The notes beneath the pieces are model-generated. The model was not told the DNA's origin. It saw nothing but the letters and a program-made list of their open reading frames with translations, and ran no database searches. This document shows, piece by piece, positions 6,559-53,384 of a DNA stretch of 64,000 nucleotides. A program made the position numbers and the translations under genes. The stretch spans positions 48-64,047 of the forward strand of contig CAZRIP010000005.1 of assembly GCA_964600165.1 (NCBI GenBank). The letters are read 5' to 3'. Origin of the DNA: an uncultured Elusimicrobia bacterium (GTDB lineage: Bacteria > Elusimicrobiota > Elusimicrobia > UBA1565 > UBA9628). Numbering within the stretch: position 1 is the first letter of the stretch; each line of letters begins with the position of its first letter.

Positions 6559-6644
6559 AGCGAACGTGTCTAGGATGGGGGGCGGACTTCGCGTGCCTGC
6601 AAGTAGAATGGCAAAGCTTCTAATCCCCTGTTACAATTCGTGGC

Positions 6645-7307
6645 ATGAGCTCAATTCCTGAGGAAATCGAAAGGATCGGCAAACAGTTGGTGGCGTGTGT
6701 AGACTGTTGCCTTGGCATCTGCCAAAAGCAAGCAGAAGGAATTTTGCCTCGGGGTCTTTTTCTTGAACGACCAAACAGCCCCGGTCGAGGATGCGTCGCA
6801 GTGGGGCTGAACCCCGGAATTTCATCAATCGAAGAAAGGGATTATTTCCGCAAGAATGGAACCTCCTACGATATGGTCAAAGCCCACCGTGAATCTATTA
6901 ATGGCATACCGTATTTTAAACGGACACGCCGCGTCATCGACCAACTGGGACTCAGTGGACCGATTCTTTGGTCCAACCTAGCAAAGTGTGAAAATTTAAA
7001 AGAGCGAAAACGGTTCACACCACCACTTCAGACACTGAGGCACTGTGCCAACAAGTTTCTGCTTCGGGAGTTGAAAATAGTTCCAAGAGATTGGGCCATT
7101 CTCGGGTTGGGCCGCGAAGCATTTCGCACACTTGCCTACATGCTCCCGGATCATGCCGTTCTGGGAATTCCGCATCCAACCGGAGCTAACCCAGAATACA
7201 GCAAGATGTTCGAGAATGATGCACTTCGCTCGGATTTGCGGAAGCGGGCGGAAAAAGCATGGGATAAATCAGAAGTAGCATGGTTGGGAACGGCCGGGAA
7301 CGGTTGA
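6645..7307 (+). CDS. uracil-DNA glycosylase superfamily protein (family-4-like scaffold with a MUG-like motif A), carried on a low-GC island
   Basis: Motif A reads GLNPG and motif B reads GIPHPTGANP. The family-4-like segment LWSNLAKCEN...PPLQTLRHC and an N-terminal Cys cluster CVDCCLGIC are present. The local GC is about 47% against about 70% in the flanks. Confidence 0.55.
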   Translation: MSSIPEEIERIGKQLVACVDCCLGICQKQAEGILPRGLFLERPNSPGRGCVAVGLNPGISSIEERDYFRKNGTSYDMVKAHRESINGIPYFKRTRRVIDQLGLSGPILWSNLAKCENLKERKRFTPPLQTLRHCANKFLLRELKIVPRDWAILGLGREAFRTLAYMLPDHAVLGIPHPTGANPEYSKMFENDALRSDLRKRAEKAWDKSEVAWLGTAGNG

Positions 7308-7345
7308 TGGTGGGAAAACTCCTGTTGTAGCGCGCCAGGAAATCG

Positions 7346-8128
7346 TCAATAGCTTTCCACGCAGTAAGATTTGCTCGCATCTGTCGCGCCACAGTAAATG
7401 AGATCTATCGCAAATTTTCCTTCCAAATAATAAAGATCTAGTAATGCCCTCTGGTCGTTTTGGCCCCGAAAAAGAACCGCGCCGCGTGGTCCAAGACAAT
7501 CGGTAACTTTCAGATAAGGACTAGGCTTGTCGAACTCCTCGGTGACTGCATAAGTTGAAGATAAATACTGTTGAGCATCATCCAATGCGTTACGGAAGTC
7601 CTGACAGTTGTCCGTAAACTCCTGAAGGTGGACGTAAAGAAGCTTATCTTTCACGGCGTCATCGACTGTTCGGATGGGGAAAAACGCGCTGAGTTCAGAG
7701 GGATGAAATCGCCCATATGCGAGCTTTTTGGATATTGGCCAGGATAAAAAGCCCGTTTGCGACGTTGCGGGCTTATCGCCAAGTGCTTTTCCGGTTTCGT
7801 TGCGCGACATTCCCATGGTCAGGTGAAATGGGAATTCTAATTGGATTTTTTCTGTCGTAGAAGTGGTCTTGTCTTCATGGGAACTTTTCCCGCAGCTTCC
7901 GACGATAAGAATGAGCCCCAGAATGGAAGCTAAGAGTGTGAGAGGAAGAACAATAAGCATCCCAACACCCAGTTTAACGCCGTCAAGAACGGTGTTTCCG
8001 GGCCTGTTTGATTGTGCGGGTTCGTTGGTACCGTGGATGTCGCGCTTGCAGAACCGACAAACGATCGCTTCGCGCCTTATCGTTTCAGCGCAGAACGGAC
8101 ATTTCTTGTTGCCGGTCGGAGCGTCCAC
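7346..8128 (-). CDS. hypothetical membrane protein with N-terminal zinc ribbon (CPFC...CRFC), one TM helix and a Cys-containing extracytoplasmic domain, on a low-GC island
   Basis: The ORF is 260 aa. It contains the CxxC-X13-CxxC motif and a hydrophobic segment GVGMLIVLPLTLLASILGLILIVG. The local GC is low. Confidence 0.5.
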   Translation of the reverse strand: MDAPTGNKKCPFCAETIRREAIVCRFCKRDIHGTNEPAQSNRPGNTVLDGVKLGVGMLIVLPLTLLASILGLILIVGSCGKSSHEDKTTSTTEKIQLEFPFHLTMGMSRNETGKALGDKPATSQTGFLSWPISKKLAYGRFHPSELSAFFPIRTVDDAVKDKLLYVHLQEFTDNCQDFRNALDDAQQYLSSTYAVTEEFDKPSPYLKVTDCLGPRGAVLFRGQNDQRALLDLYYLEGKFAIDLIYCGATDASKSYCVESY

Positions 8129-8174
8129 TTAAATTTGATCCCTATCCGGAACTAATTTTTAAGAAATAGTCCGA

Positions 8175-41677: not shown

Positions 41678-43261
41678 TTATAAATTCGTTTTCTTTTTCG
41701 CCTGGGGTCGGCGGACGTGACGCTCGCCGCGTCGCGCCGCGTCGCGCGCGTTTTTTTCGCGCAGCGCGATGTCCGAGAGCGCGAGCCAATGAGCGGGGTC
41801 CTTCGGCTCGAGGGCGATCGCCGAAAGCGCGGCTTGGCGCGCGCGCGTAAAGTCGCCGCGCATCTTGGCGGCGACGGCGAGGCGCTCGAGGTTTGAAACG
41901 TCGCCGGGCCGCAGGGCGCGGGCGCGCTCGTGGCAGGCGAGCGCGCGCGTCCAATCGCCGAGCTTGCCGTAGGCCAAGCCCTCGCGATAGGCGAGCCCGG
42001 GATAATCCGGGGCGTCGCCGTCGAGCCGCAGCAGCCGCGCGAGCGCTTCGGCGGGCCGTCCTTGCGCCAGCAAGGCGTCGCCGGCCAAGAGCTGGGCGGC
42101 GGGCCAGCTCGGCGACGTGTTCAAGACCTCGTCGAGTCGGCTCACTGCGTCGCTCTCGGAGCCGGCCAACGCCAGCAAGCGCCGCGCGCCGGCGACCTTG
42201 AAATCGTCGGCGAGCCAGCGCGCGGGAAAGACGGCGAGAAGCGCCAGGCAGGCCGCGAAGGCCGCCGCGAGCGCGCGGCGCGGGATTCTTTCGAAAGGCA
42301 AGGCGGCCGTCGCGAAAGGCTCGCCCGAGGAGGCGAGCGCGCAGAGCCCGCAGGCGGCTCCCGCGCAGAGCCAGGCCGCGGCCGCGAGCGCCGGGAGCGA
42401 CGTCCACGCGACGGCGGCCAAGGCGAGCGCCGCGCCGAGGAGCGCCGCGAGGACGCCGCGCTCCTCCGGCGCGCCGAGCCGGCCGAACGCTCTGAAAGCG
42501 CGCGCGGCCTCGACGAGCACGGCCGCCGCGAGCAAAATCGTGAGCGCCGCGCCGACGGGCTCGAAGCGCTCGATGGAGGGGAGAGGCGAGACGCGGCCGC
42601 CCGCGACGAGCGCCGCGAGGGCCAGGCCCGCCGCCGACGCGGCCGCGGCCTTGAGCAGCCGCTTGGCCTCGCCGCCGCCGCCGAGGGCGAACGCGGAGGT
42701 GAGAAACAGCGCGGGGCCCGCGGCGCGATCGAGCGCGGAGGGCAGCGCGAAGGCGGGCCCGACGGCGCCGACGCACGCCTCCCAGGCGATGAGCGCGCCG
42801 GCGATCCAGATCGCCGGAAGAAGACGCCGCGGCGCGCTCAGGCGGCCGGACAGCAGGCCGTGAAGAAGAAGGGCGCCGATTCCGGCGAGCGTTCCAAGGC
42901 GCAGCGCGGCGCCGAGGCCGGCATCCGGGTCCCAGGCGCCGACGAGCGAGGCGAAAGGAAGGCAGAGCGCGAGGGCGACGAGCGCGGCCGATGAGAATGA
43001 GAGCGCCGACGGCGGCTCGGGCTCAGGAGCGGCTTCGGGGGCGTCCGGCGCCGGCTGCGCCTTGAGCAGCGCCTGCCGCAGCTTCTCTTTGAGCTCGGGG
43101 GGCATCGGCGCGGGCCCGGCCTTCGCCGGGCGCAGCGCGCGCGCGAGGCGCGCGCATTCGGCGCAGCCTTTCAAATGCTCCGCGACGGCGCGGCTTCGCG
43201 CCTCCGGCAGCCGGTCCTCGAGGTGAAGATCGAGCAAGGCGCGTGTGCTTGCGCAGTTCAT
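41678..43261 (-). CDS. anti-sigma factor: N-terminal zf-HC2 zinc finger, multi-pass membrane region, C-terminal TPR repeats
   Basis: H-x3-C-x2-C motif HLKGCAECA, several hydrophobic helices and C-terminal TPR-like repeats. ATGA overlap with the ECF sigma gene. Confidence 0.7.
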   Translation of the reverse strand: MNCASTRALLDLHLEDRLPEARSRAVAEHLKGCAECARLARALRPAKAGPAPMPPELKEKLRQALLKAQPAPDAPEAAPEPEPPSALSFSSAALVALALCLPFASLVGAWDPDAGLGAALRLGTLAGIGALLLHGLLSGRLSAPRRLLPAIWIAGALIAWEACVGAVGPAFALPSALDRAAGPALFLTSAFALGGGGEAKRLLKAAAASAAGLALAALVAGGRVSPLPSIERFEPVGAALTILLAAAVLVEAARAFRAFGRLGAPEERGVLAALLGAALALAAVAWTSLPALAAAAWLCAGAACGLCALASSGEPFATAALPFERIPRRALAAAFAACLALLAVFPARWLADDFKVAGARRLLALAGSESDAVSRLDEVLNTSPSWPAAQLLAGDALLAQGRPAEALARLLRLDGDAPDYPGLAYREGLAYGKLGDWTRALACHERARALRPGDVSNLERLAVAAKMRGDFTRARQAALSAIALEPKDPAHWLALSDIALREKNARDAARRGERHVRRPQAKKKTNL

Positions 43262-46757: not shown

Positions 46758-47576
46758 AGCGGTGCCAGGCACTGAAGTGAATCGTTTGTTGAAAAGGAAG
46801 CGTGTCAGCGCGGCCGGCGGGAAAGAACGACGAGGCGGTTTGAGTCTTTCGTCAGGGTGAGGCCGTCGAGGGAGCCCCAGCGCCGGACCGGCCTGAGCCC
46901 GGCTTGCTTGAGTATCGTTGAAAGGCGGCGCCAATCGTACTGGCGAACCATGAGCATCGCGCGCGCGGGCGCTCGACCCTTACGGAGGATGGTCCATTCC
47001 GATTCGACTCGGGGGTCTCGTCCTTCGACGAGGCGGCTGTCCTCGAGAAGGTAGCTGCCGTCGCCGCGCCGCTGCCATTTCTTCGGCTGGAAGTGTCGGC
47101 GCAGCCAGGCCGCGTTCATGAGATCGATCAGAAATAGGCCTCCCGGTCGCAGCGCGTTGCGAACCTTGCGAAGCGTCCTCAGGTCGTCCCGCGGATCGGC
47201 GAAATAGCCGAAGCTCGTCCAAAGGTTGATGGCTGCGTCGAACTCGGCGTGGAACGGAAGATTGCGCATATCGCCGAGGCGGAAGGAGAGTCGAGGTCCG
47301 GCAAGGCGTTTCGCGGCGGCCAGGTATTCGGGAGTCGAATCGACGCCTAGAACTAAAGCGCCCTTGCGCGCGAGGGCGGCGCTGTGCCGTCCGGTCCCGC
47401 AACAAAGATCCAACACGCGCTGCCCGCGCCGCAGCCCGAGAGCGCGCCAAACGAAGGAAGCCTCTCGGGGAGCCGCCGCGATCGCCTCGGGCTGGCCGGG
47501 CGTGAATATTTCCTCTCGAAAGAATCGACGCCGCCAACTTTTCAATAAACGAGTCACTTTAGTGCCTGGCACCGCT
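46758..47576. mobile_element. putative transposase-less mobile insertion cassette: 36-bp terminal inverted repeats (33/36 identical) flanked by a 5-bp direct repeat TCAAC, carrying one SAM methyltransferase gene
   Basis: IR-L at 46758-46793 reads AGCGGTGCCAGGCACTGAAGTGAATCGTTTGTTGAA. The reverse complement of IR-R at 47541-47576 reads AGCGGTGCCAGGCACTAAAGTGACTCGTTTATTGAA. TCAAC sits at 46753-46757 and again at 47577-47581. Confidence 0.4.
46805..47572 (-). CDS. class I SAM-dependent methyltransferase (passenger of the IR-flanked cassette)
   Basis: SAM motif I VLDLCCGTGRHS and motif post-I LVLGVDS. The GTG start lies inside IR-R. Confidence 0.8.
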   Translation of the reverse strand: MPGTKVTRLLKSWRRRFFREEIFTPGQPEAIAAAPREASFVWRALGLRRGQRVLDLCCGTGRHSAALARKGALVLGVDSTPEYLAAAKRLAGPRLSFRLGDMRNLPFHAEFDAAINLWTSFGYFADPRDDLRTLRKVRNALRPGGLFLIDLMNAAWLRRHFQPKKWQRRGDGSYLLEDSRLVEGRDPRVESEWTILRKGRAPARAMLMVRQYDWRRLSTILKQAGLRPVRRWGSLDGLTLTKDSNRLVVLSRRPR

Positions 47577-47582
47577 TCAACA

Positions 47583-50500
47583 TCAGAACTGGAACGTGAG
47601 GGTGGTGCCGAATTGGTACGAGATGAAGTCTTCCTCCGGGAGGAACTTATGCCATTCGCGCGATAACGCGCCGTTGATCGTCATGCGCAGGTTCTTGGCC
47701 AGCTCGTAATCGGCGCTGGTGTTGAACGTGGCGAGCTTGAAGTTATCCGCCACCGTCACCGGCGAGGAGCGCAGCGCGAGGGACAGCGTCGTCGTCCAGA
47801 TGATCCGGTTCGAGAACAGGATCGTCTTGGTCGAGCCGGGCAGCAGCAGGCCGCGCGGCAGCGCGAGGTCGGCGCGGACGAGAACGCTGGGCGTGATGAC
47901 AGTGACGTTCTGCGAGTAGGTGCCGAAGCCGTCTTGGGTGGTGTCCTTCGAGTAGTCCACCTTGGGCGTGAAGCGGAACTTTTTTACGTCGAAGGTCGTT
48001 TGGACGGTCGCGTCTTGATGCCCGGTCGCTTGGGTGTTCGCGTCGACGAGCAGGTTCTTGTTGGTCGACGAGCGCTGGTTGAAGCTGATCAGGCTGTCGA
48101 AGCGCTTAAAAAGGATCGAGCGCAGGTCCGTGCCGAACGAGGAGTCGGTCAGGATCGACTGACCCTCGTTGTTCGTGCGGTGCGCGGAGTACTTGTAGTT
48201 CATCTGCGTGCTGTTCATCCACTTGAACGTGCCGAAGAGCTTCTCGAGCTGGCTGATGCTCGCGACGAGGTCCGGCAGCGTCGTGGAGACCGTGCGCGAT
48301 TGGGTGTCCGTCGCGTTCGTGCGTTGGATGCTTTCGACGAAGTTGTTCGAGATCGAGATCGTCTTGAGCGAGGCCCAACGCCCGCGCAGGTCGTACGCGT
48401 CGAGCGGCGACCAGCGCTGGGTCGAGTTGAACGTGTCGCGCAGGGTCTGCGTCTGCATTTGGGCCGCCGGCCCCTGCGCGTGGAGCGGCGTGCGGATCCA
48501 CAGCGCGCCCATCGTGTCGAGATCTTTTTCGACCTGATTCCAGACGTCGCCGTCTTGCAGCTGATAGCCGGAGACGATGTTGAGCGTGCGGAAGAGCTTC
48601 GTGCGCCTGGTGATCTCGCCGATGGTGATCGGCAGGCTGATCGAGCCGTTCGAGTTGCGGTTGACGGTCTTGATGTCGCCGACGTTGAAGACGTAGGTCG
48701 AGTTGCCGACCACGAAGGTCGAGATGTTGAGTATGTTGTTCTCTAGCACGTCGATCGAGTAGTTGACCTGGGGATTGAGCCAGGACAGCAGGCGATAGTT
48801 CGATGTAAAGCCTACGGTCTCGCTTTGGGACTTCGGATAGCGGCTGTCGAGCTCGACGCCCGAGGTGAGGTCGTTGCGGTGCTCGGTGACCTTGGTCAGC
48901 GAGTAGTTGGGATTGAAGGTCGAGCCGGTCCACGGGACGAAGGTCAGCCGCGCGCCGACGGTCTGCGTGAGCTCGTTGGTGTTGAAGTCGCCCGGCAACA
49001 GGCGCGACTCGAGCGAGTCGAAGGTGATGTCGTATTTCGAGTAGCTGTAGTTGAGGTCGACGGTCTTCGGCAGGTAGCGGCGCGTGATCGGGACGCCGTA
49101 CTGCAGCGTGCCCGAGTAGGTCTTGCGGTCGTCGGTCCGCGTGAGGAAATCGTAGTTGATCCGATTGCGCGCGTAGTTGAGGTTCAAGCGCGGATAGGCG
49201 CCCAGGCTGAAGTTGCCTTGGGCCGTGCCGGTGAAGTTGACGACCTTGCCCTGTTGGAGCAGGTTGACGCTGTTCGTGAGCCCGCCCGTCAGATTGGTGG
49301 CCGGCGTGTCGGTGACGATGCGCGAGACGTTGAAGGTCAGCGGGAAATACTGCAGCCTGGTGAAGTTGAGGAATCCCGTGTCTTGCTCGTTGTCCTGATT
49401 GAGCACCACGGAGGTCGGCGTCTGGAAGTTACGGTCGACGGAGCGGAATTTCCCGCCGAACGTGGCCCAGCCCGGCACCTCGAAAGTCGCCTCGAGCTTC
49501 TCGGCGTTGCCGACGCGCGGGAGCGGCTGGGCGACGTGGATCTCGTTGAGGTAGACGATGCCCGCGCTCTGGTTGTCGCCGGTGATGCTGTTGCCGTTGC
49601 CGCCGGACGTCGTGTCGGTCGTCTTGCGGACGCCGGCCACGATCTCGGAGACTTGCTGAAGGCTCGGCGTGCCTGAGCTGATGATCGTGGTGCCGGGCGT
49701 GCTGGCCTGCCAGGTATCGGCGACGGCGTTGTGTCCCGAGTCGTTCTGGTAGACCCTGATCTCGCGCCAGCCGACGTAGTTCAGCGGGACGTCGACCTCC
49801 CAGAAGTTGGTGTCGTTGCCGACGCGCAGGAAGAACGTGTGGTCCGTGCAGTTGATCGCGCCGTTGCTCCCGTTGGCGGGCGAGCACGTCGCGCCTTGAC
49901 TATTAGGCGCGTTGGAATAGAGCAGGAAGTTGAAATAGCGGTGCTGGCTGATGTCGATCGCCGTCGTGTATTGCCGCTTGGTCGTCACGACGGCCCCGAC
50001 GCCGTTGACGATCGTCATGCTGGAGAACGCGAGCTCGAGGGCCTGCTCCGAGACGTTCGTGGTGTTCGACTGCTTCTGGAGGTTGCTCAGGCTGCCGTAG
50101 AGGTCGTTGAAGACCTGCGTCGCGTCGCCGCCGGCGTTGTAGATCGGGGTGTAGGTCGGGTTGTCGACGTTGTTGATCGGCGTGACGGTCAGGTTCTCGG
50201 GGCCGACGGGGTTATTGTTGAGAGCCGGGTCGATGGGCTGGCCGTTGAGCCACGTGTTGCCGACCACCGAGATGTTGGCGAATTTGAGCTGTCCGGCGAC
50301 CGGGCTTCCCGCGTGGTGTCGTACGGAGACGCGCAGCTGCTTGATGTTCGTCCAGCGGCTGAGCGTCGCCGTCGAGATGGCGAGCGGGATCTGGAACGTG
50401 TACCAGTTCGTGCCGCCGCCGAAGTCGATGACGGTGTGGACCTTCTGGTCGGTGGTGGCGAAGAGCTGCGTGCTCGTCGGGTTGAAGCCGGTGATGTCGC

Positions 50501-53384
50501 CCGCGTAGCCGAAGTTGTTGCCGTTGCCGTCGTCTTGGTCGAGGCGCGCGTTGACGTTGAGATCCTCGCTGTCGAGGCGGCCGTTGTTGGCGCCGAAGAC
50601 CGTCGAGGGCGTCAGGGAGCCAGCCGGGTTGGTGTAGGTCCAGCCGACGTCCTTGGCCGGCGACAAGATGCCGGTGCAGTCCGTGTCCTCGGTCTTCGGG
50701 ACGTTGTTGACCGTGACGCCGTTGGCGCAGGTCAGCGTCGTGCCGCCCGTCGCGTCCGCGTCCTCGGAGATGCCTCCCAGGCGGAAGTTGATGTCGTTGC
50801 CGGAGACGTCGCCGAGCATCGTGATCTGTAGGATCGTGCGCTGCGAGAAGTCGTTGCCGGCTGACGAGAACGGGAAGACGATCGACTGCTCCTGCGAGGC
50901 CGCGTTCGAGAAGTCGTAGTTGAAGTCGAGCACCTGCTGCGGCTGGTTGTTCGTCGCGGGGGCGCTCGGGTTGATCTGCAAGGCCGGCACGTTCTCGCTC
51001 GTCCACTGCATGCGGGAGGAGTCGCTCGGATCTTGGCTGCCGGTGAACGACGTGCAGGGCGTGGCGGCGGAGCAGCCGGCGCCGCCGGGGTTCGAGGCGA
51101 TGAACCACGCGGAGGCCAAAGTCGAGGCGCCGTCCGACTGCTTGATCCCCTCCATGTTGTCGACGATGGCGAAGGCGTTGAGGTTCAAGTCTTGGCGGCT
51201 CTGGGCGAACTCCCCGCCGAGGAGCTTGACCTTGAACTTCTTGCCGATCTGGAAGTCCTGCCCGTGGGCGTCGAAGTCGTAGACGAGCAGGCTGCGGGAG
51301 AGCTCGGTGATCGAGGGCGTCGTCTGGGACTTGATCCCCGACTCATAAAGCAGGGTCGAGCCCACCTCGTAGTGCTTGCCCCATTCGTAGGACACGCGGG
51401 TGCCGAGCAGCGAGTCGTTGGTCGTCGCGCCGGCGAAGGGCGCCACCTCGTAGCTGATGTCGATCTCGGAGTTCGCGCGGATGCGGTCCTGGTTGAAGAA
51501 CGTCACGAAGCCGGCGTCGTAGTCGATGAAGTAGTCGACGTTGCGGTTGAGCTTGACGTTGTCGAGCAGCACGATCTCCGATTGAGGCACGAGGTTCGGC
51601 TCGAGGAAGAAGGTCTTGAAGCGGTAGTTGTACTCGACGTGGATGATCCGATTGGGGATCGGCGTCGGCGCGTAGATGTTCGGGTCGGGCGTCGAGGGCG
51701 AGCTGTTCGAGACCGAGAACGGCACCAGCAGGTTGAAAAGGCCGTTGGCGAAGTCGACGTTGATCGTGTCCGGATACTTCTGGATCGGGTTCAAGCCCGA
51801 GCCGACCTCGTTGCGGTTCTGGTCCAAGACCTTCAGGATGAAGTTGCCCCGGCCGTTGTCGCCCACGATCTGGGTCTGGCCGATGCTGTAGAAGGTCTTG
51901 AGCTCGCGGTTGTAGCCCACTTCGTCGAGCGTGCAGCTCGAGCACTCGATCGGCTGGTCGCCCGCCGTCTTGATCAGCTTGAAATTGCCGGTGCCGCCGC
52001 CGATGGTCGTCATCGAGGAAGTCTCGACGTCGACGTGCTGATTGGAATTGTCGATGTAGTCGACGGCGACGACGAACTGCGGCTGGAGCTGGTTGCGGAA
52101 GGTGATGATGCCGCGCACGTAGTCGATCGTGTAGTCGAGGCCCGCCTGCATCTGAGCGAACGTGCCCGTGAAGGTCGAGGTGTGCAGCTGCAGGTCGTCG
52201 GCCGTCAGCGCCACGTTGTTCGTGTTGACCAAGCCGGGCTGATTCTGCGAGAGGAAGACGCGCTCGCTGCCGACCTTGATCGGCAGGCGGCTCGGGTTGC
52301 CGAACGTCAGATCGTAATAAGTGCGGCGGACGTAGGACGTGTCCTGAAGGTCGATGGAGGCGAACTGCTGGTTGCCGAAGAACTGCTTCGACTTCGTCGT
52401 GCCCTTGGTGCGGCTGCCGATGAAGCTGCCCTTGAAGCCCTTGTACTTGATGTCGGCGCGGATGCCGAAGAGCTGCTTGTTGTACGAGACGAACTCGGTG
52501 GCGGGCAATGAGAGGTCGATGTCGCCGAAGCTGACGTTTTGGACGACCTCGTTGGGATCTCCGGTGTAGACGACGGAGATGTCCTGGTGGTTCTGCTTCG
52601 TGTCGTCGTAGTCGACGTTGACCGTGATCTTCGGGCCGACTTTGCCCTGCATGCGCAGCTGGAGCTGCTGGGTGATGTCGATGAGGTTGGTCGTCTGCGG
52701 GCGGCCGGAGGTGACCTGCGGGTTGAGGAACTTCTTCTCGGAGTAGGTCACGCCGAGGACCTTGCGGCCGGTCACCGAGAGGCTCGTGCCGTAGGTCGGC
52801 AGCTCGACTTCGGGCGGCGGCGGCTTGGGCGCCGTAGTCGAGGAGATCGAGACCGCCTCGCCGAGGAGGATCGGGATGATCTCGTTCTCGTTGGGCTCGC
52901 GGCCCTCGTCGACGTCGGTCTTCGCGTGCTCGTATTTGTCGAGCGTGTAGTGGAACTCTTGGGTCGACTCGGCGATCTCCCAGTCCAGGAACTCCGGGGT
53001 CTCGGAGGAGACGCCCGCGGCCACCTCGGTCGACTCCTGCTGCTCGAAGATGTGGTCCTTGTCCGTCCGGTCGAGAAGCAGGAACTTGCCCGAGTACGAC
53101 GGCATCAAGATCGGCACCGGCGGCTCGCTGGGCAGATTCTCCGGCGCGGCCGAAGGCTGGCTGGAAGGCTCCTCGGGCTGGGTCGATTCCTGCGGCGCCG
53201 GCGCGGGGGCCTCGGGCGCCTCGGGGGCCGGCTTTTGCGGGGTCTTCGACGGCTCCTGTTGGGGGGCGAAATCCGGGTCGTACGGCGTGGAAAATTGGGC
53301 GTAAGCCGGCACGTTCGCGGGCGCGAGCGTAACTAATAGTGCCAGCCAGAGACAAAACCGCCGATGGGCGCGCTGTAGATTCAA
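47583..53384 (-). CDS. giant (1933 aa) secreted protein, predicted outer-membrane beta-barrel (possibly SprA-like)
   Basis: TTG start. Signal peptide LWLALLVTLAPANVPAYA. Pro/Glu-rich linker. About 1700 aa rich in N/T/S/G/Q/Y with alternating hydrophobic patterns. The C-terminus TLTFQF ends in Phe. Confidence 0.75.
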   Translation of the reverse strand: MNLQRAHRRFCLWLALLVTLAPANVPAYAQFSTPYDPDFAPQQEPSKTPQKPAPEAPEAPAPAPQESTQPEEPSSQPSAAPENLPSEPPVPILMPSYSGKFLLLDRTDKDHIFEQQESTEVAAGVSSETPEFLDWEIAESTQEFHYTLDKYEHAKTDVDEGREPNENEIIPILLGEAVSISSTTAPKPPPPEVELPTYGTSLSVTGRKVLGVTYSEKKFLNPQVTSGRPQTTNLIDITQQLQLRMQGKVGPKITVNVDYDDTKQNHQDISVVYTGDPNEVVQNVSFGDIDLSLPATEFVSYNKQLFGIRADIKYKGFKGSFIGSRTKGTTKSKQFFGNQQFASIDLQDTSYVRRTYYDLTFGNPSRLPIKVGSERVFLSQNQPGLVNTNNVALTADDLQLHTSTFTGTFAQMQAGLDYTIDYVRGIITFRNQLQPQFVVAVDYIDNSNQHVDVETSSMTTIGGGTGNFKLIKTAGDQPIECSSCTLDEVGYNRELKTFYSIGQTQIVGDNGRGNFILKVLDQNRNEVGSGLNPIQKYPDTINVDFANGLFNLLVPFSVSNSSPSTPDPNIYAPTPIPNRIIHVEYNYRFKTFFLEPNLVPQSEIVLLDNVKLNRNVDYFIDYDAGFVTFFNQDRIRANSEIDISYEVAPFAGATTNDSLLGTRVSYEWGKHYEVGSTLLYESGIKSQTTPSITELSRSLLVYDFDAHGQDFQIGKKFKVKLLGGEFAQSRQDLNLNAFAIVDNMEGIKQSDGASTLASAWFIASNPGGAGCSAATPCTSFTGSQDPSDSSRMQWTSENVPALQINPSAPATNNQPQQVLDFNYDFSNAASQEQSIVFPFSSAGNDFSQRTILQITMLGDVSGNDINFRLGGISEDADATGGTTLTCANGVTVNNVPKTEDTDCTGILSPAKDVGWTYTNPAGSLTPSTVFGANNGRLDSEDLNVNARLDQDDGNGNNFGYAGDITGFNPTSTQLFATTDQKVHTVIDFGGGTNWYTFQIPLAISTATLSRWTNIKQLRVSVRHHAGSPVAGQLKFANISVVGNTWLNGQPIDPALNNNPVGPENLTVTPINNVDNPTYTPIYNAGGDATQVFNDLYGSLSNLQKQSNTTNVSEQALELAFSSMTIVNGVGAVVTTKRQYTTAIDISQHRYFNFLLYSNAPNSQGATCSPANGSNGAINCTDHTFFLRVGNDTNFWEVDVPLNYVGWREIRVYQNDSGHNAVADTWQASTPGTTIISSGTPSLQQVSEIVAGVRKTTDTTSGGNGNSITGDNQSAGIVYLNEIHVAQPLPRVGNAEKLEATFEVPGWATFGGKFRSVDRNFQTPTSVVLNQDNEQDTGFLNFTRLQYFPLTFNVSRIVTDTPATNLTGGLTNSVNLLQQGKVVNFTGTAQGNFSLGAYPRLNLNYARNRINYDFLTRTDDRKTYSGTLQYGVPITRRYLPKTVDLNYSYSKYDITFDSLESRLLPGDFNTNELTQTVGARLTFVPWTGSTFNPNYSLTKVTEHRNDLTSGVELDSRYPKSQSETVGFTSNYRLLSWLNPQVNYSIDVLENNILNISTFVVGNSTYVFNVGDIKTVNRNSNGSISLPITIGEITRRTKLFRTLNIVSGYQLQDGDVWNQVEKDLDTMGALWIRTPLHAQGPAAQMQTQTLRDTFNSTQRWSPLDAYDLRGRWASLKTISISNNFVESIQRTNATDTQSRTVSTTLPDLVASISQLEKLFGTFKWMNSTQMNYKYSAHRTNNEGQSILTDSSFGTDLRSILFKRFDSLISFNQRSSTNKNLLVDANTQATGHQDATVQTTFDVKKFRFTPKVDYSKDTTQDGFGTYSQNVTVITPSVLVRADLALPRGLLLPGSTKTILFSNRIIWTTTLSLALRSSPVTVADNFKLATFNTSADYELAKNLRMTINGALSREWHKFLPEEDFISYQFGTTLTFQF

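Follow-up and report, generated by a model that had tools for sequence, protein, structure and literature searches.

The window considered here is a 64-kb stretch of DNA (64,000 nucleotides) from an uncultured Elusimicrobia bacterium (contig CAZRIP010000005.1, positions 48 to 64,047), and its gene at 6645-7307, located with one convergent gene in a short low-GC islet, encodes a putative DNA glycosylase. [quoted passage not shown] All of the strings quoted in that reading were found in the 220-residue protein, i.e., CVDCCLGIC (residues 18-26), GLNPG (54-58), SNLAKCEN (110-117), PPLQTLRHC (126-134) and HPTGANP (177-183). A word-indexed search retrieved 107 homolog clusters with identities of 34-57% and E-values from 1e-33 to 1e-77, nearly all of them metagenome proteins without a name. 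When 1.84 billion representative proteins were screened exhaustively with the family profile, 570 representatives had E-values of 1e-3 or lower, and 268 had E-values of 1e-30 or lower. These 107 clusters and 570 representatives show that the open reading frame (ORF) is a genuine gene, as opposed to one that arose by chance. The occurrence of 570 representatives among 1.84 billion indicates, therefore, that the glycosylase family is small and discrete; its profile stops short of the very large family 4 and family 5 UDG groups.

The relationship of the window protein to the UDG superfamily is barely visible in profile searches. Pfam PF03167 matched it just over threshold (25.2 bits against a cut-off of 24.3; E-value of 1.9e-5) and also matched 26 of 42 members of the glycosylase family at E<=0.01, while no NCBIfam model matched the window protein or any of the 42 members. 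Searches of PDB sequences, using phmmer and hmmsearch with the family profile, returned nothing significant, and the latter recovered no family 4 UDG; the sole resemblance, itself not significant, was between the motif B stretch and the HPSPRNP sequence of SMUG1. The AlphaFold2 model, built on an alignment of the 42 sequences, was confident (mean predicted local distance difference test score, pLDDT, of 93.2; predicted TM-score, pTM, of 0.90). Foldseek matches of this model in the PDB were ranked as S. tokodaii family 4, T. maritima family 4, UdgX, BdiUng, Geobacter SMUG1 and SMUG2, with TM-scores of approximately 0.49 and identities of 14-18%. In the fold-search table, the scores were 11.9 for the T. 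maritima family 4 structure 1l9g (22% identity over 152 residues), 11.2 for family 5 (2d3y), 10.8 for UdgX, 10.3 for BdiUng, 8.6 for Geobacter SMUG1 (family 3), 8.3 for SMUG2, 6.0-6.5 for MUG/TDG (family 2) and 6.0 for 2l3f, a putative UDG of M. acetivorans. As judged from the predicted structure, the nearest scaffolds are those of the Fe-S (iron-sulphur)-bearing UDG families, at a distance typical between families of the superfamily. The structure prediction that the sequence-only reading had proposed as a check thus found UDG-fold similarity, and both PF03167 and the UDG alpha/beta fold place the protein in the superfamily. The hybrid description agrees with the fold matches to families 4, 5 and UdgX and with the residue alignment described below. 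A search of the viral folds in BFVD with the model gave only generic UDG and polymerase-fused matches, and a scan of the N-terminal extensions of longer family members found no fused domains.

Residue conservation was read from a 231-member alignment of the family. Four cysteines are conserved, namely C18 (96%), C22 (96%), C115 (100%) and C134 (98%). Of the N-terminal Cys cluster that had been proposed from the CVDCCLGIC string, C18 and C22 were retained, but C21 and C26 are not conserved. Motif A consists of G54 (100%), L, I or M at position 55 (Met in 19 of the 231 members), N56 (99%), P57 (100%) and G58 (95%), and motif B includes G174 (98%), Pro (92%) and H177 (99%). W109 (100%), K114 (98%) and E142 (100%) are also conserved. 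As family 4 comparators, we used the TM0511 sequence of T. maritima, which is exactly that of 1l9g, and the T. thermophilus (Tth) and S. tokodaii (Sto) sequences from the same PDB output. A weak local profile-profile alignment to family 4 (hhalign; E-value of 6e-4, probability of 28%) set VGLNPG on VGEGPG, with L55 opposite the family 4 Glu and N56 opposite Gly, in agreement with the earlier assignment of GLNPG to the Asn type. The same alignment placed LWSNLAKCEN on YICNVVKCRPP, with N111 opposite the uracil-reading Asn and K114-C115 opposite the K-C ligand, and RHC on AAC, with C134 opposite the fourth Cys ligand; the family 4-like character claimed for the SNLAKCEN and PPLQTLRHC segments was thereby borne out. 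In addition, Y67 was located opposite the stacking Phe, and the location of C18 and C22 after the N-terminal helix matches that of C18 and C21 in TM0511. In four members (P0176, P0190, P0209 and P0210), C18, C22 and C134 are jointly lost (C134D), whereas C115, N56 and H177 are kept. This joint loss is the expectation if those cysteines build one metal site, and we infer that C18, C22, C115 and C134 bind a putative 4Fe-4S-type cluster. The four Cys-less proteins are mutually divergent; they look like natural cluster-free variants that would be useful for probing the role of the metal site. The positions of these residues and of the other features of the locus are given in Table 1.

Table 1. Features of the glycosylase gene and its islet, in window coordinates.
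Feature	Position	Strand	Basis or remark
Low-GC islet carrying the glycosylase gene and a convergent ORFan	~6559..8174	.	Composition
Promoter-like site ATGGCA-18-TACAAT with upstream TG	6608..6637	+	Consensus scan only, at background frequency; weak evidence
Glycosylase gene	6645..7307	+	ATG start, 220 aa; UDG fold, putative undescribed Fe-S, Asn-type family
C18-x3-C22 codons, putative first two Fe-S ligands	6696..6710	+	After N-terminal helix
Motif A G54-L55-N56-P57-G58, putative water-positioning Asn	6804..6818	+	Conservation; alignment on family 4 GEGPG
Motif 3 W109-S-N111-L-A-K114-C115-E116, putative base-reading N111 and third Cys ligand	6969..6992	+	
C134 codon, putative fourth Fe-S ligand, start of helix 128-145	7044..7046	+	98% conserved
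Motif B G174-I-P-H177-P-T-G180, putative leaving-group-stabilising His	7164..7184	+	Conservation
Second islet gene, 260 aa	7346..8128	-	N-terminal zinc ribbon (CPFC...CRFC), one predicted membrane helix, C-terminal domain of unknown kind

The published definitions of the UDG families give GQDPY and HPSPLS as motifs A and B of family 1, GINPG and MPSSSAR for family 2, GMNPG and HPSPRN for family 3, GE(A/G)PG and HPAAVL for family 4, GLAPA and HPSPLN for family 5, and GEQPG and HPSSLLR together with a KRRIH loop for UdgX; a 4Fe-4S cluster is given for families 4 and 5 and is not stated for families 1, 2 and 3 or for UdgX (PMC10359453). Among 5,000 family 4 sequences, the third position of motif A is mostly Q, A or G (PMC10359453). 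The catalytic Asp/Asn at this position is absent in families 4, 5 and 6, and the motif B His is absent in families 2 and 6 (PMC5387724). In family 4, the motif A Glu shapes a tight uracil pocket and the motif 3 Asn (N89) positions the water; water positioning in family 5 also uses the motif 3 Asn (PMC5387724).

Compared with family 4 (T. maritima TM0511, 1L9G; T. thermophilus, 1UI0; S. tokodaii, 4ZBY), the glycosylase family has the same four-Cys pattern, with two cysteines past the N-terminal helix, a third in the K-C that follows strand 2 and the last in the next helix; thus, at the level of predicted ligands, the four 4Fe-4S cysteines of family 4 are present. The motif B His-Pro is also shared, as is, in the clade of the window protein, the Asn at the base-reading position. 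Nevertheless, G-[LIM]-N-P-G replaces GE(A/G)PG, with the pocket-gating Glu lost and a catalytic-type Asn gained, and the motif 3 Asn (N89 of Tth UDGa) is without a conserved counterpart. Motif B reads HPTG(A/S/G) and not HP(A/S)xx(L/V)R, and no NCBIfam family 4 model was matched, which sets the protein apart from family 4 (UdgA) in motif A, motif B and curated models. With SMUG1, the family shares the pairing of a motif A Asn (GMNPG) with a motif B His (HPSPRN), and its G-[LIM]-N-P-G is compatible with the family 3 motif A, as it is with the GINPG of family 2. However, the SMUG motif definitions carry no Cys set, while the glycosylase family has four conserved cysteines; no sequence-profile relationship with SMUG proteins was found (the comparators were Geobacter SMUG1, 5H93, and Pedobacter SMUG2, 5H0K), and neither the HPSPRN motif B nor the overall sequence and fold of family 3 applies. 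Family 5 (UdgB; T. thermophilus 2D3Y) differs in having Ala at the third position of motif A and no final Gly, and its combination of GLAPA, HPSPLN and 4Fe-4S does not describe the window protein. The same is true of family 2 (MUG/TDG; GINPG and no catalytic His in motif B), of UdgX, whose GEQPG and KRRIH loop are both absent from the window protein, and of family 6 (HDG), which has neither the motif A catalytic residue nor the motif B His.

With Asn and His on a four-Cys scaffold, no Glu gate and no conserved N89 counterpart, the glycosylase family therefore lacks defining features of each of families 2-6 and of UdgX. As far as sequence comparison goes, the glycosylase family shares parts of several UDG families and fits none of families 2, 3, 4, 5, 6 or UdgX. 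Text searches of the literature turned up neither a UDG paper that contains GLNPG nor any account of a UDG family of the Fe-S, Asn type. We hold with fair confidence that the window protein works as a glycosylase and belongs to a new UDG family of this type. The opposite case, in which it would be a non-hydrolytic UDG-fold protein, either a lesion binder or covalent cross-linker like UdgX or an inactive relic, appears very improbable to us: the loop and motif A of UdgX are missing, the catalytic Asn and His are each 99% conserved, and the ORF is intact and identical across six independent metagenome contigs.

In the mechanism that we propose, based on the conserved residues and on established UDG chemistry, the protein would adopt the UDG alpha/beta fold and act as a monofunctional DNA glycosylase, and its four cysteines would hold a 4Fe-4S-type cluster, like those of families 4 and 5. 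The pyrimidine would be flipped into the pocket and stacked against the aromatic pair at positions 67 and 68, where 68% and 87% of the members, respectively, carry an aromatic residue. Residue 111 would read the base at its Watson-Crick edge, N56 would position the attacking water, as MUG and SMUG1 do, and H177 would stabilise the base as it leaves, a part that His also plays in UNG, SMUG1 and family 4. The L, I or M found in place of the family 4 Glu could make space for a 5-substituent. We take N56, N111 and H177 to be the counterparts of N85, N163 and H239 of human SMUG1. The N111 of the window protein suggests uracil or 5-substituted uracil as its target, and the window protein is probably an Fe-S glycosylase acting on uracil-type pyrimidines.

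Position 111 is variable in the family, with Glu in 124 members (54%), Asn in 66 (29%) and Asp in 39 (17%). The Asn-111 clade, which includes the window protein, is coherent, with a mean identity of 0.53 and a distinct motif B loop. In the Brig1 paper, the base-reading residue is reported to be Glu147, where UDGs usually carry Asn (N82 in Sto UDG). Human UNG is turned into a cytosine glycosylase by the N204D substitution. By analogy with these two precedents, the E/D-111 clades may read cytosine-type bases and the N-111 clade uracil-type bases, so that the E/N/D variation would mark clades with different targets.

The islet that carries the gene is 1.6 kb long and has sharp edges, with GC falling from 0.70 to approximately 0.50 at ~6555 and rising again at ~8180. 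GC at third codon positions is 0.49-0.51 in the islet genes and 0.88-0.91 in the flanking TgpA, TPR and argS genes, and no other low-GC anomaly of this kind was found in the window. The same arrangement is present in six metagenome contigs with 99.9-100% nucleotide identity and an intact ORF. All ArgRS homologs with a name, at 69-73% identity, are labelled as Elusimicrobiota, which identifies the host as an uncultured member of that phylum. An empty site was identified in L059 (GCA_027452025.1; 78% ArgRS identity), where MoxR-TgpA and argS are still close together and the interval between them is occupied by a 223-aa gene, unrelated and with a GC like that of the host, plus 107 nucleotides (L059:3457-4235); neither the islet nor a homolog of either islet gene is present in L059. 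Since the islet is missing at this syntenic site, it is thus a lineage-specific recent insertion. A search of metagenomes with a degenerate argS pattern returned relatives that were too distant for synteny. No tRNA was found in the window, the islet contains no integrase gene, and the only repeats are short, imperfect and of chance quality, with none that convincingly marks the boundaries of the islet. Accordingly, of the foreign island proposed in the sequence-only reading, a sharply bounded low-GC islet was found, but it comprises only 1.6 kb and two genes, with no larger island around it. In L057:3400-5046, a different stretch of ~1.6 kb with lower GC (0.56-0.60 versus 0.68-0.70) and unrelated ORFs lies past the argS stop. 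The interval past the argS stop varies in this Elusimicrobiota lineage and may be a recurrent insertion spot.

The promoter-like site ends 7 nucleotides upstream of the ATG, and no obvious Shine-Dalgarno sequence lies between the two; as far as a consensus scan at background frequency indicates, the glycosylase mRNA may be leaderless. The 260-aa product of the second islet gene has full-length matches only within its own cluster, the other matches being to the zinc ribbon alone, which resembles several PHROGs of unknown function. No homologs of this protein recur beside other members of the glycosylase family. We considered the gene as a partner of the glycosylase and rejected it as an ORFan with a zinc-ribbon match only; the two genes are probably functionally unlinked. 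Elsewhere in the window, positions 42001-43000 have a GC of 0.763 and an AT skew of +0.435, and the 6 kb at 47001-53000 have a lower GC (0.61-0.65) and a strong GC skew (0.09-0.18).

In a scan of one genome per species (~185,000 species), we found 33 loci of the glycosylase family, distributed over bacteria (Methylomirabilota, Acidobacteriota, Chloroflexota, Elusimicrobiota, Bacteroidota, Bacillota, Planctomycetota, Patescibacteria and Nitrospirota) and archaea (Hadesarchaea, Thermoplasmatales, Micrarchaeota and Nitrososphaeria). The only cultured isolate among them is Paludibacterium denitrificans, which would be a tractable organism for genetics. Annotation-free all-against-all clustering of neighbouring ORFs revealed no conserved partner common to more than 6 of 38 loci; one neighbour cluster, to which no family could be assigned, reaches 6 loci. 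Likewise, Pfam and PADLOC scans of 111 neighbours identified no family in more than two loci. Membership of a housekeeping family with conserved synteny was thus looked for with NCBIfam and by neighbour clustering, and neither was found. Taken with the islet, the gene appears to be a single-gene mobile accessory module that was recently acquired by this Elusimicrobiota genome.

The neighbours themselves are of two kinds. Some loci have defence or conflict genes nearby, including an MmeI-type IIG restriction-modification enzyme, a methyl-directed restriction endonuclease, MADS components, SoFic, PDC-S04/S15, HNH, PIN and HicAB/BrnT, and one family member is located in an island with Mrr, HNH, FRG, integrase and RHS genes. 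In one high-GC lineage, HicA/HicB and BrnT-type toxin-antitoxin genes flank the family member (L015:1324-1739; L016:605-1127 and 2394-2809). Other loci have housekeeping neighbours, such as fumarase, shikimate kinase, IspF and a nitrate-assimilation operon. In three independent metagenomes (L012:7088-8684, L013:977-2573 and L014:479-2075), the gene starts 1-2 nucleotides past the ftsY stop on the same strand, in an operon-like arrangement, and its GC is 12 points under that of its flanks.

The housekeeping settings, among them the ftsY linkage, would be in accordance with accessory base-excision repair, in which a broad, SMUG1-like Fe-S glycosylase clears uracil, hydroxymethyluracil and other damaged bases from host DNA and spreads horizontally like UdgX and family 5. 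The complete uracil-type active-site set of N56, N111 and H177 is compatible with such a role, as is the stand-alone gene, a condition shared by most base-excision repair glycosylases. PADLOC v2.0.0, with a database of 2023 that is older than Brig1-3, gave no match for the glycosylase, and UdgX is described as likewise sporadic in distribution (PMC10776899). However, the family, found in 33 of ~185,000 species, is extremely rare, and it lacks synteny. In 24 of the 31 long loci, the GC of the gene is more than 3 points under that of the flanks (above in 2; mean -0.068), a pattern that points to recent acquisition on repeated occasions, as opposed to stable retention. Alternation among Glu, Asn and Asp at the base-reading residue is also unusual if a repair enzyme has one fixed lesion to recognise. 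We regard the repair role as possible, although on balance doubtful.

Another explanation is that the gene serves a mobile element or prophage, e.g., in cleaning uracil from the DNA of the element or in conflicts between elements, and arrived as cargo. In P. denitrificans (L043:10001-10636, the same as L058:8001-8636), the gene is itself a sharp low-GC insert (0.39 versus 0.55-0.60) within a provirus called by IMG/VR, where its neighbours are a tape-measure-like protein, a protein with an Ig-like domain and PHROGs without a known function; the provirus prediction has weak phage signals around the glycosylase gene, and the placement resembles that of a prophage 'moron'. Transposases and a recombinase flank the gene in L007 and L008, and integrase and RHS genes are close by in L017. 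Nevertheless, this Paludibacterium locus is the single match in the 2.9 million viral contigs of IMG/VR, no family match was found in 50,697 phage genomes or 72,556 plasmids, and the window islet is without a mobility gene, tRNA or convincing terminal repeats. A service to mobile elements is, in our estimation, improbable.

The role that we favour, while holding it as a tentative preference, is that the enzyme removes non-canonical pyrimidines from the DNA of invading phages, as Brig1, Brig2 and Brig3 act in defence. These three are UDG-superfamily, single-gene anti-phage effectors, and they substantiate the precedent of UDG-fold defence glycosylases that the sequence-only reading had invoked. 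We lean towards defence because such enzymes exist, because Brig2 homologs occur in AT-rich and mobile contexts, because some family members adjoin defence genes, and because of the Paludibacterium provirus insert. Like the Brig proteins, the family consists of divergent single-gene UDG-fold enzymes that are horizontally mobile and found in AT-rich contexts. The best fold match reported for Brig1 is Sto UDG (4ZBY), which also tops the Foldseek list for the window protein, and the replacement of the base-reading Asn by Glu in Brig1 is the same alternation as at position 111.

Several differences separate the family from the individual Brig proteins. The Brig1 segment HRDILN145FE147LYPWHS, which we reconstructed from primers AA954-AA961 for local comparison only, has neither the invariant Trp nor the K-C ligand of the W-[ST]-[END]-L-x-K-C motif found at the equivalent stretch of the glycosylase family. 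Most homologs of Brig1 are actinobacterial, and Vibrio integrons are the source of Brig2, whereas the family was found in neither Actinobacteria nor Vibrio in the ~185,000-species scan. Identity with Brig1 was rejected because of taxonomy and of the local sequence derived from the primers; Brig2, as far as its published description goes, has a different taxonomic range. Brig3 catalysis uses the Asn of an N-P motif (N50), but its residue pattern of N50, E55, W100, H125, D127 and N225 does not map onto the family, and the spacing differs. The papers on Brig1 and Brig3 mention neither iron nor an Fe-S cluster. By analogy, the glycosylase family might work in a Brig-like way, and it is not placed within any Brig family.

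A number of observations weigh against this interpretation. Many family members are located among housekeeping genes, and the ftsY linkage is hard to reconcile with a role confined to defence islands. In the window, the surroundings of the glycosylase gene hold no further gene for defence or mobility, the PADLOC search returned no match, and plasmids and phage genomes were devoid of family members. The covariation of position 111 with the motif B loop is confounded by shared ancestry, and the family 4 profile alignment is weak and usable in local mode only. The earlier proposal of a defence or atypical repair glycosylase, as opposed to a housekeeping UDG, is thus consistent with the rarity, patchiness, low GC and lack of synteny of the family, but its defence part gained no support from PADLOC or from a local defence island. 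A more specific version of the defence role, in which an Fe-S-dependent anti-phage family spreads as a single gene across bacteria and archaea and its position-111 clades excise different hypermodified pyrimidines (5-substituted uracils for N, modified cytosines for E/D), seems unlikely to us as a whole.

UDG families are defined by the chemistry of motifs A and B, and the glycosylase family departs from the known pairing, since it unites the Asn and His of SMUG1 with an Fe-S scaffold like that of families 4 and 5. If active, it would add a further family to the UDG superfamily and would offer a natural experiment on the shift of the water-positioning residue between motif 3 and motif A. A glycosylase specific for a modified base could, in addition, serve as a reagent for mapping DNA modifications. 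We know of no earlier Fe-S-bearing defence glycosylase; if the anti-phage role is true, this family would be the first, with natural specificity switching by a single residue. Its E/N/D switch and mobile, AT-rich distribution would make an active family a testable candidate for the growing class of glycosylase-based anti-phage systems, and this candidate extends to archaea, candidate phyla radiation (CPR) bacteria and Elusimicrobiota, lineages whose defence repertoires are poorly known.

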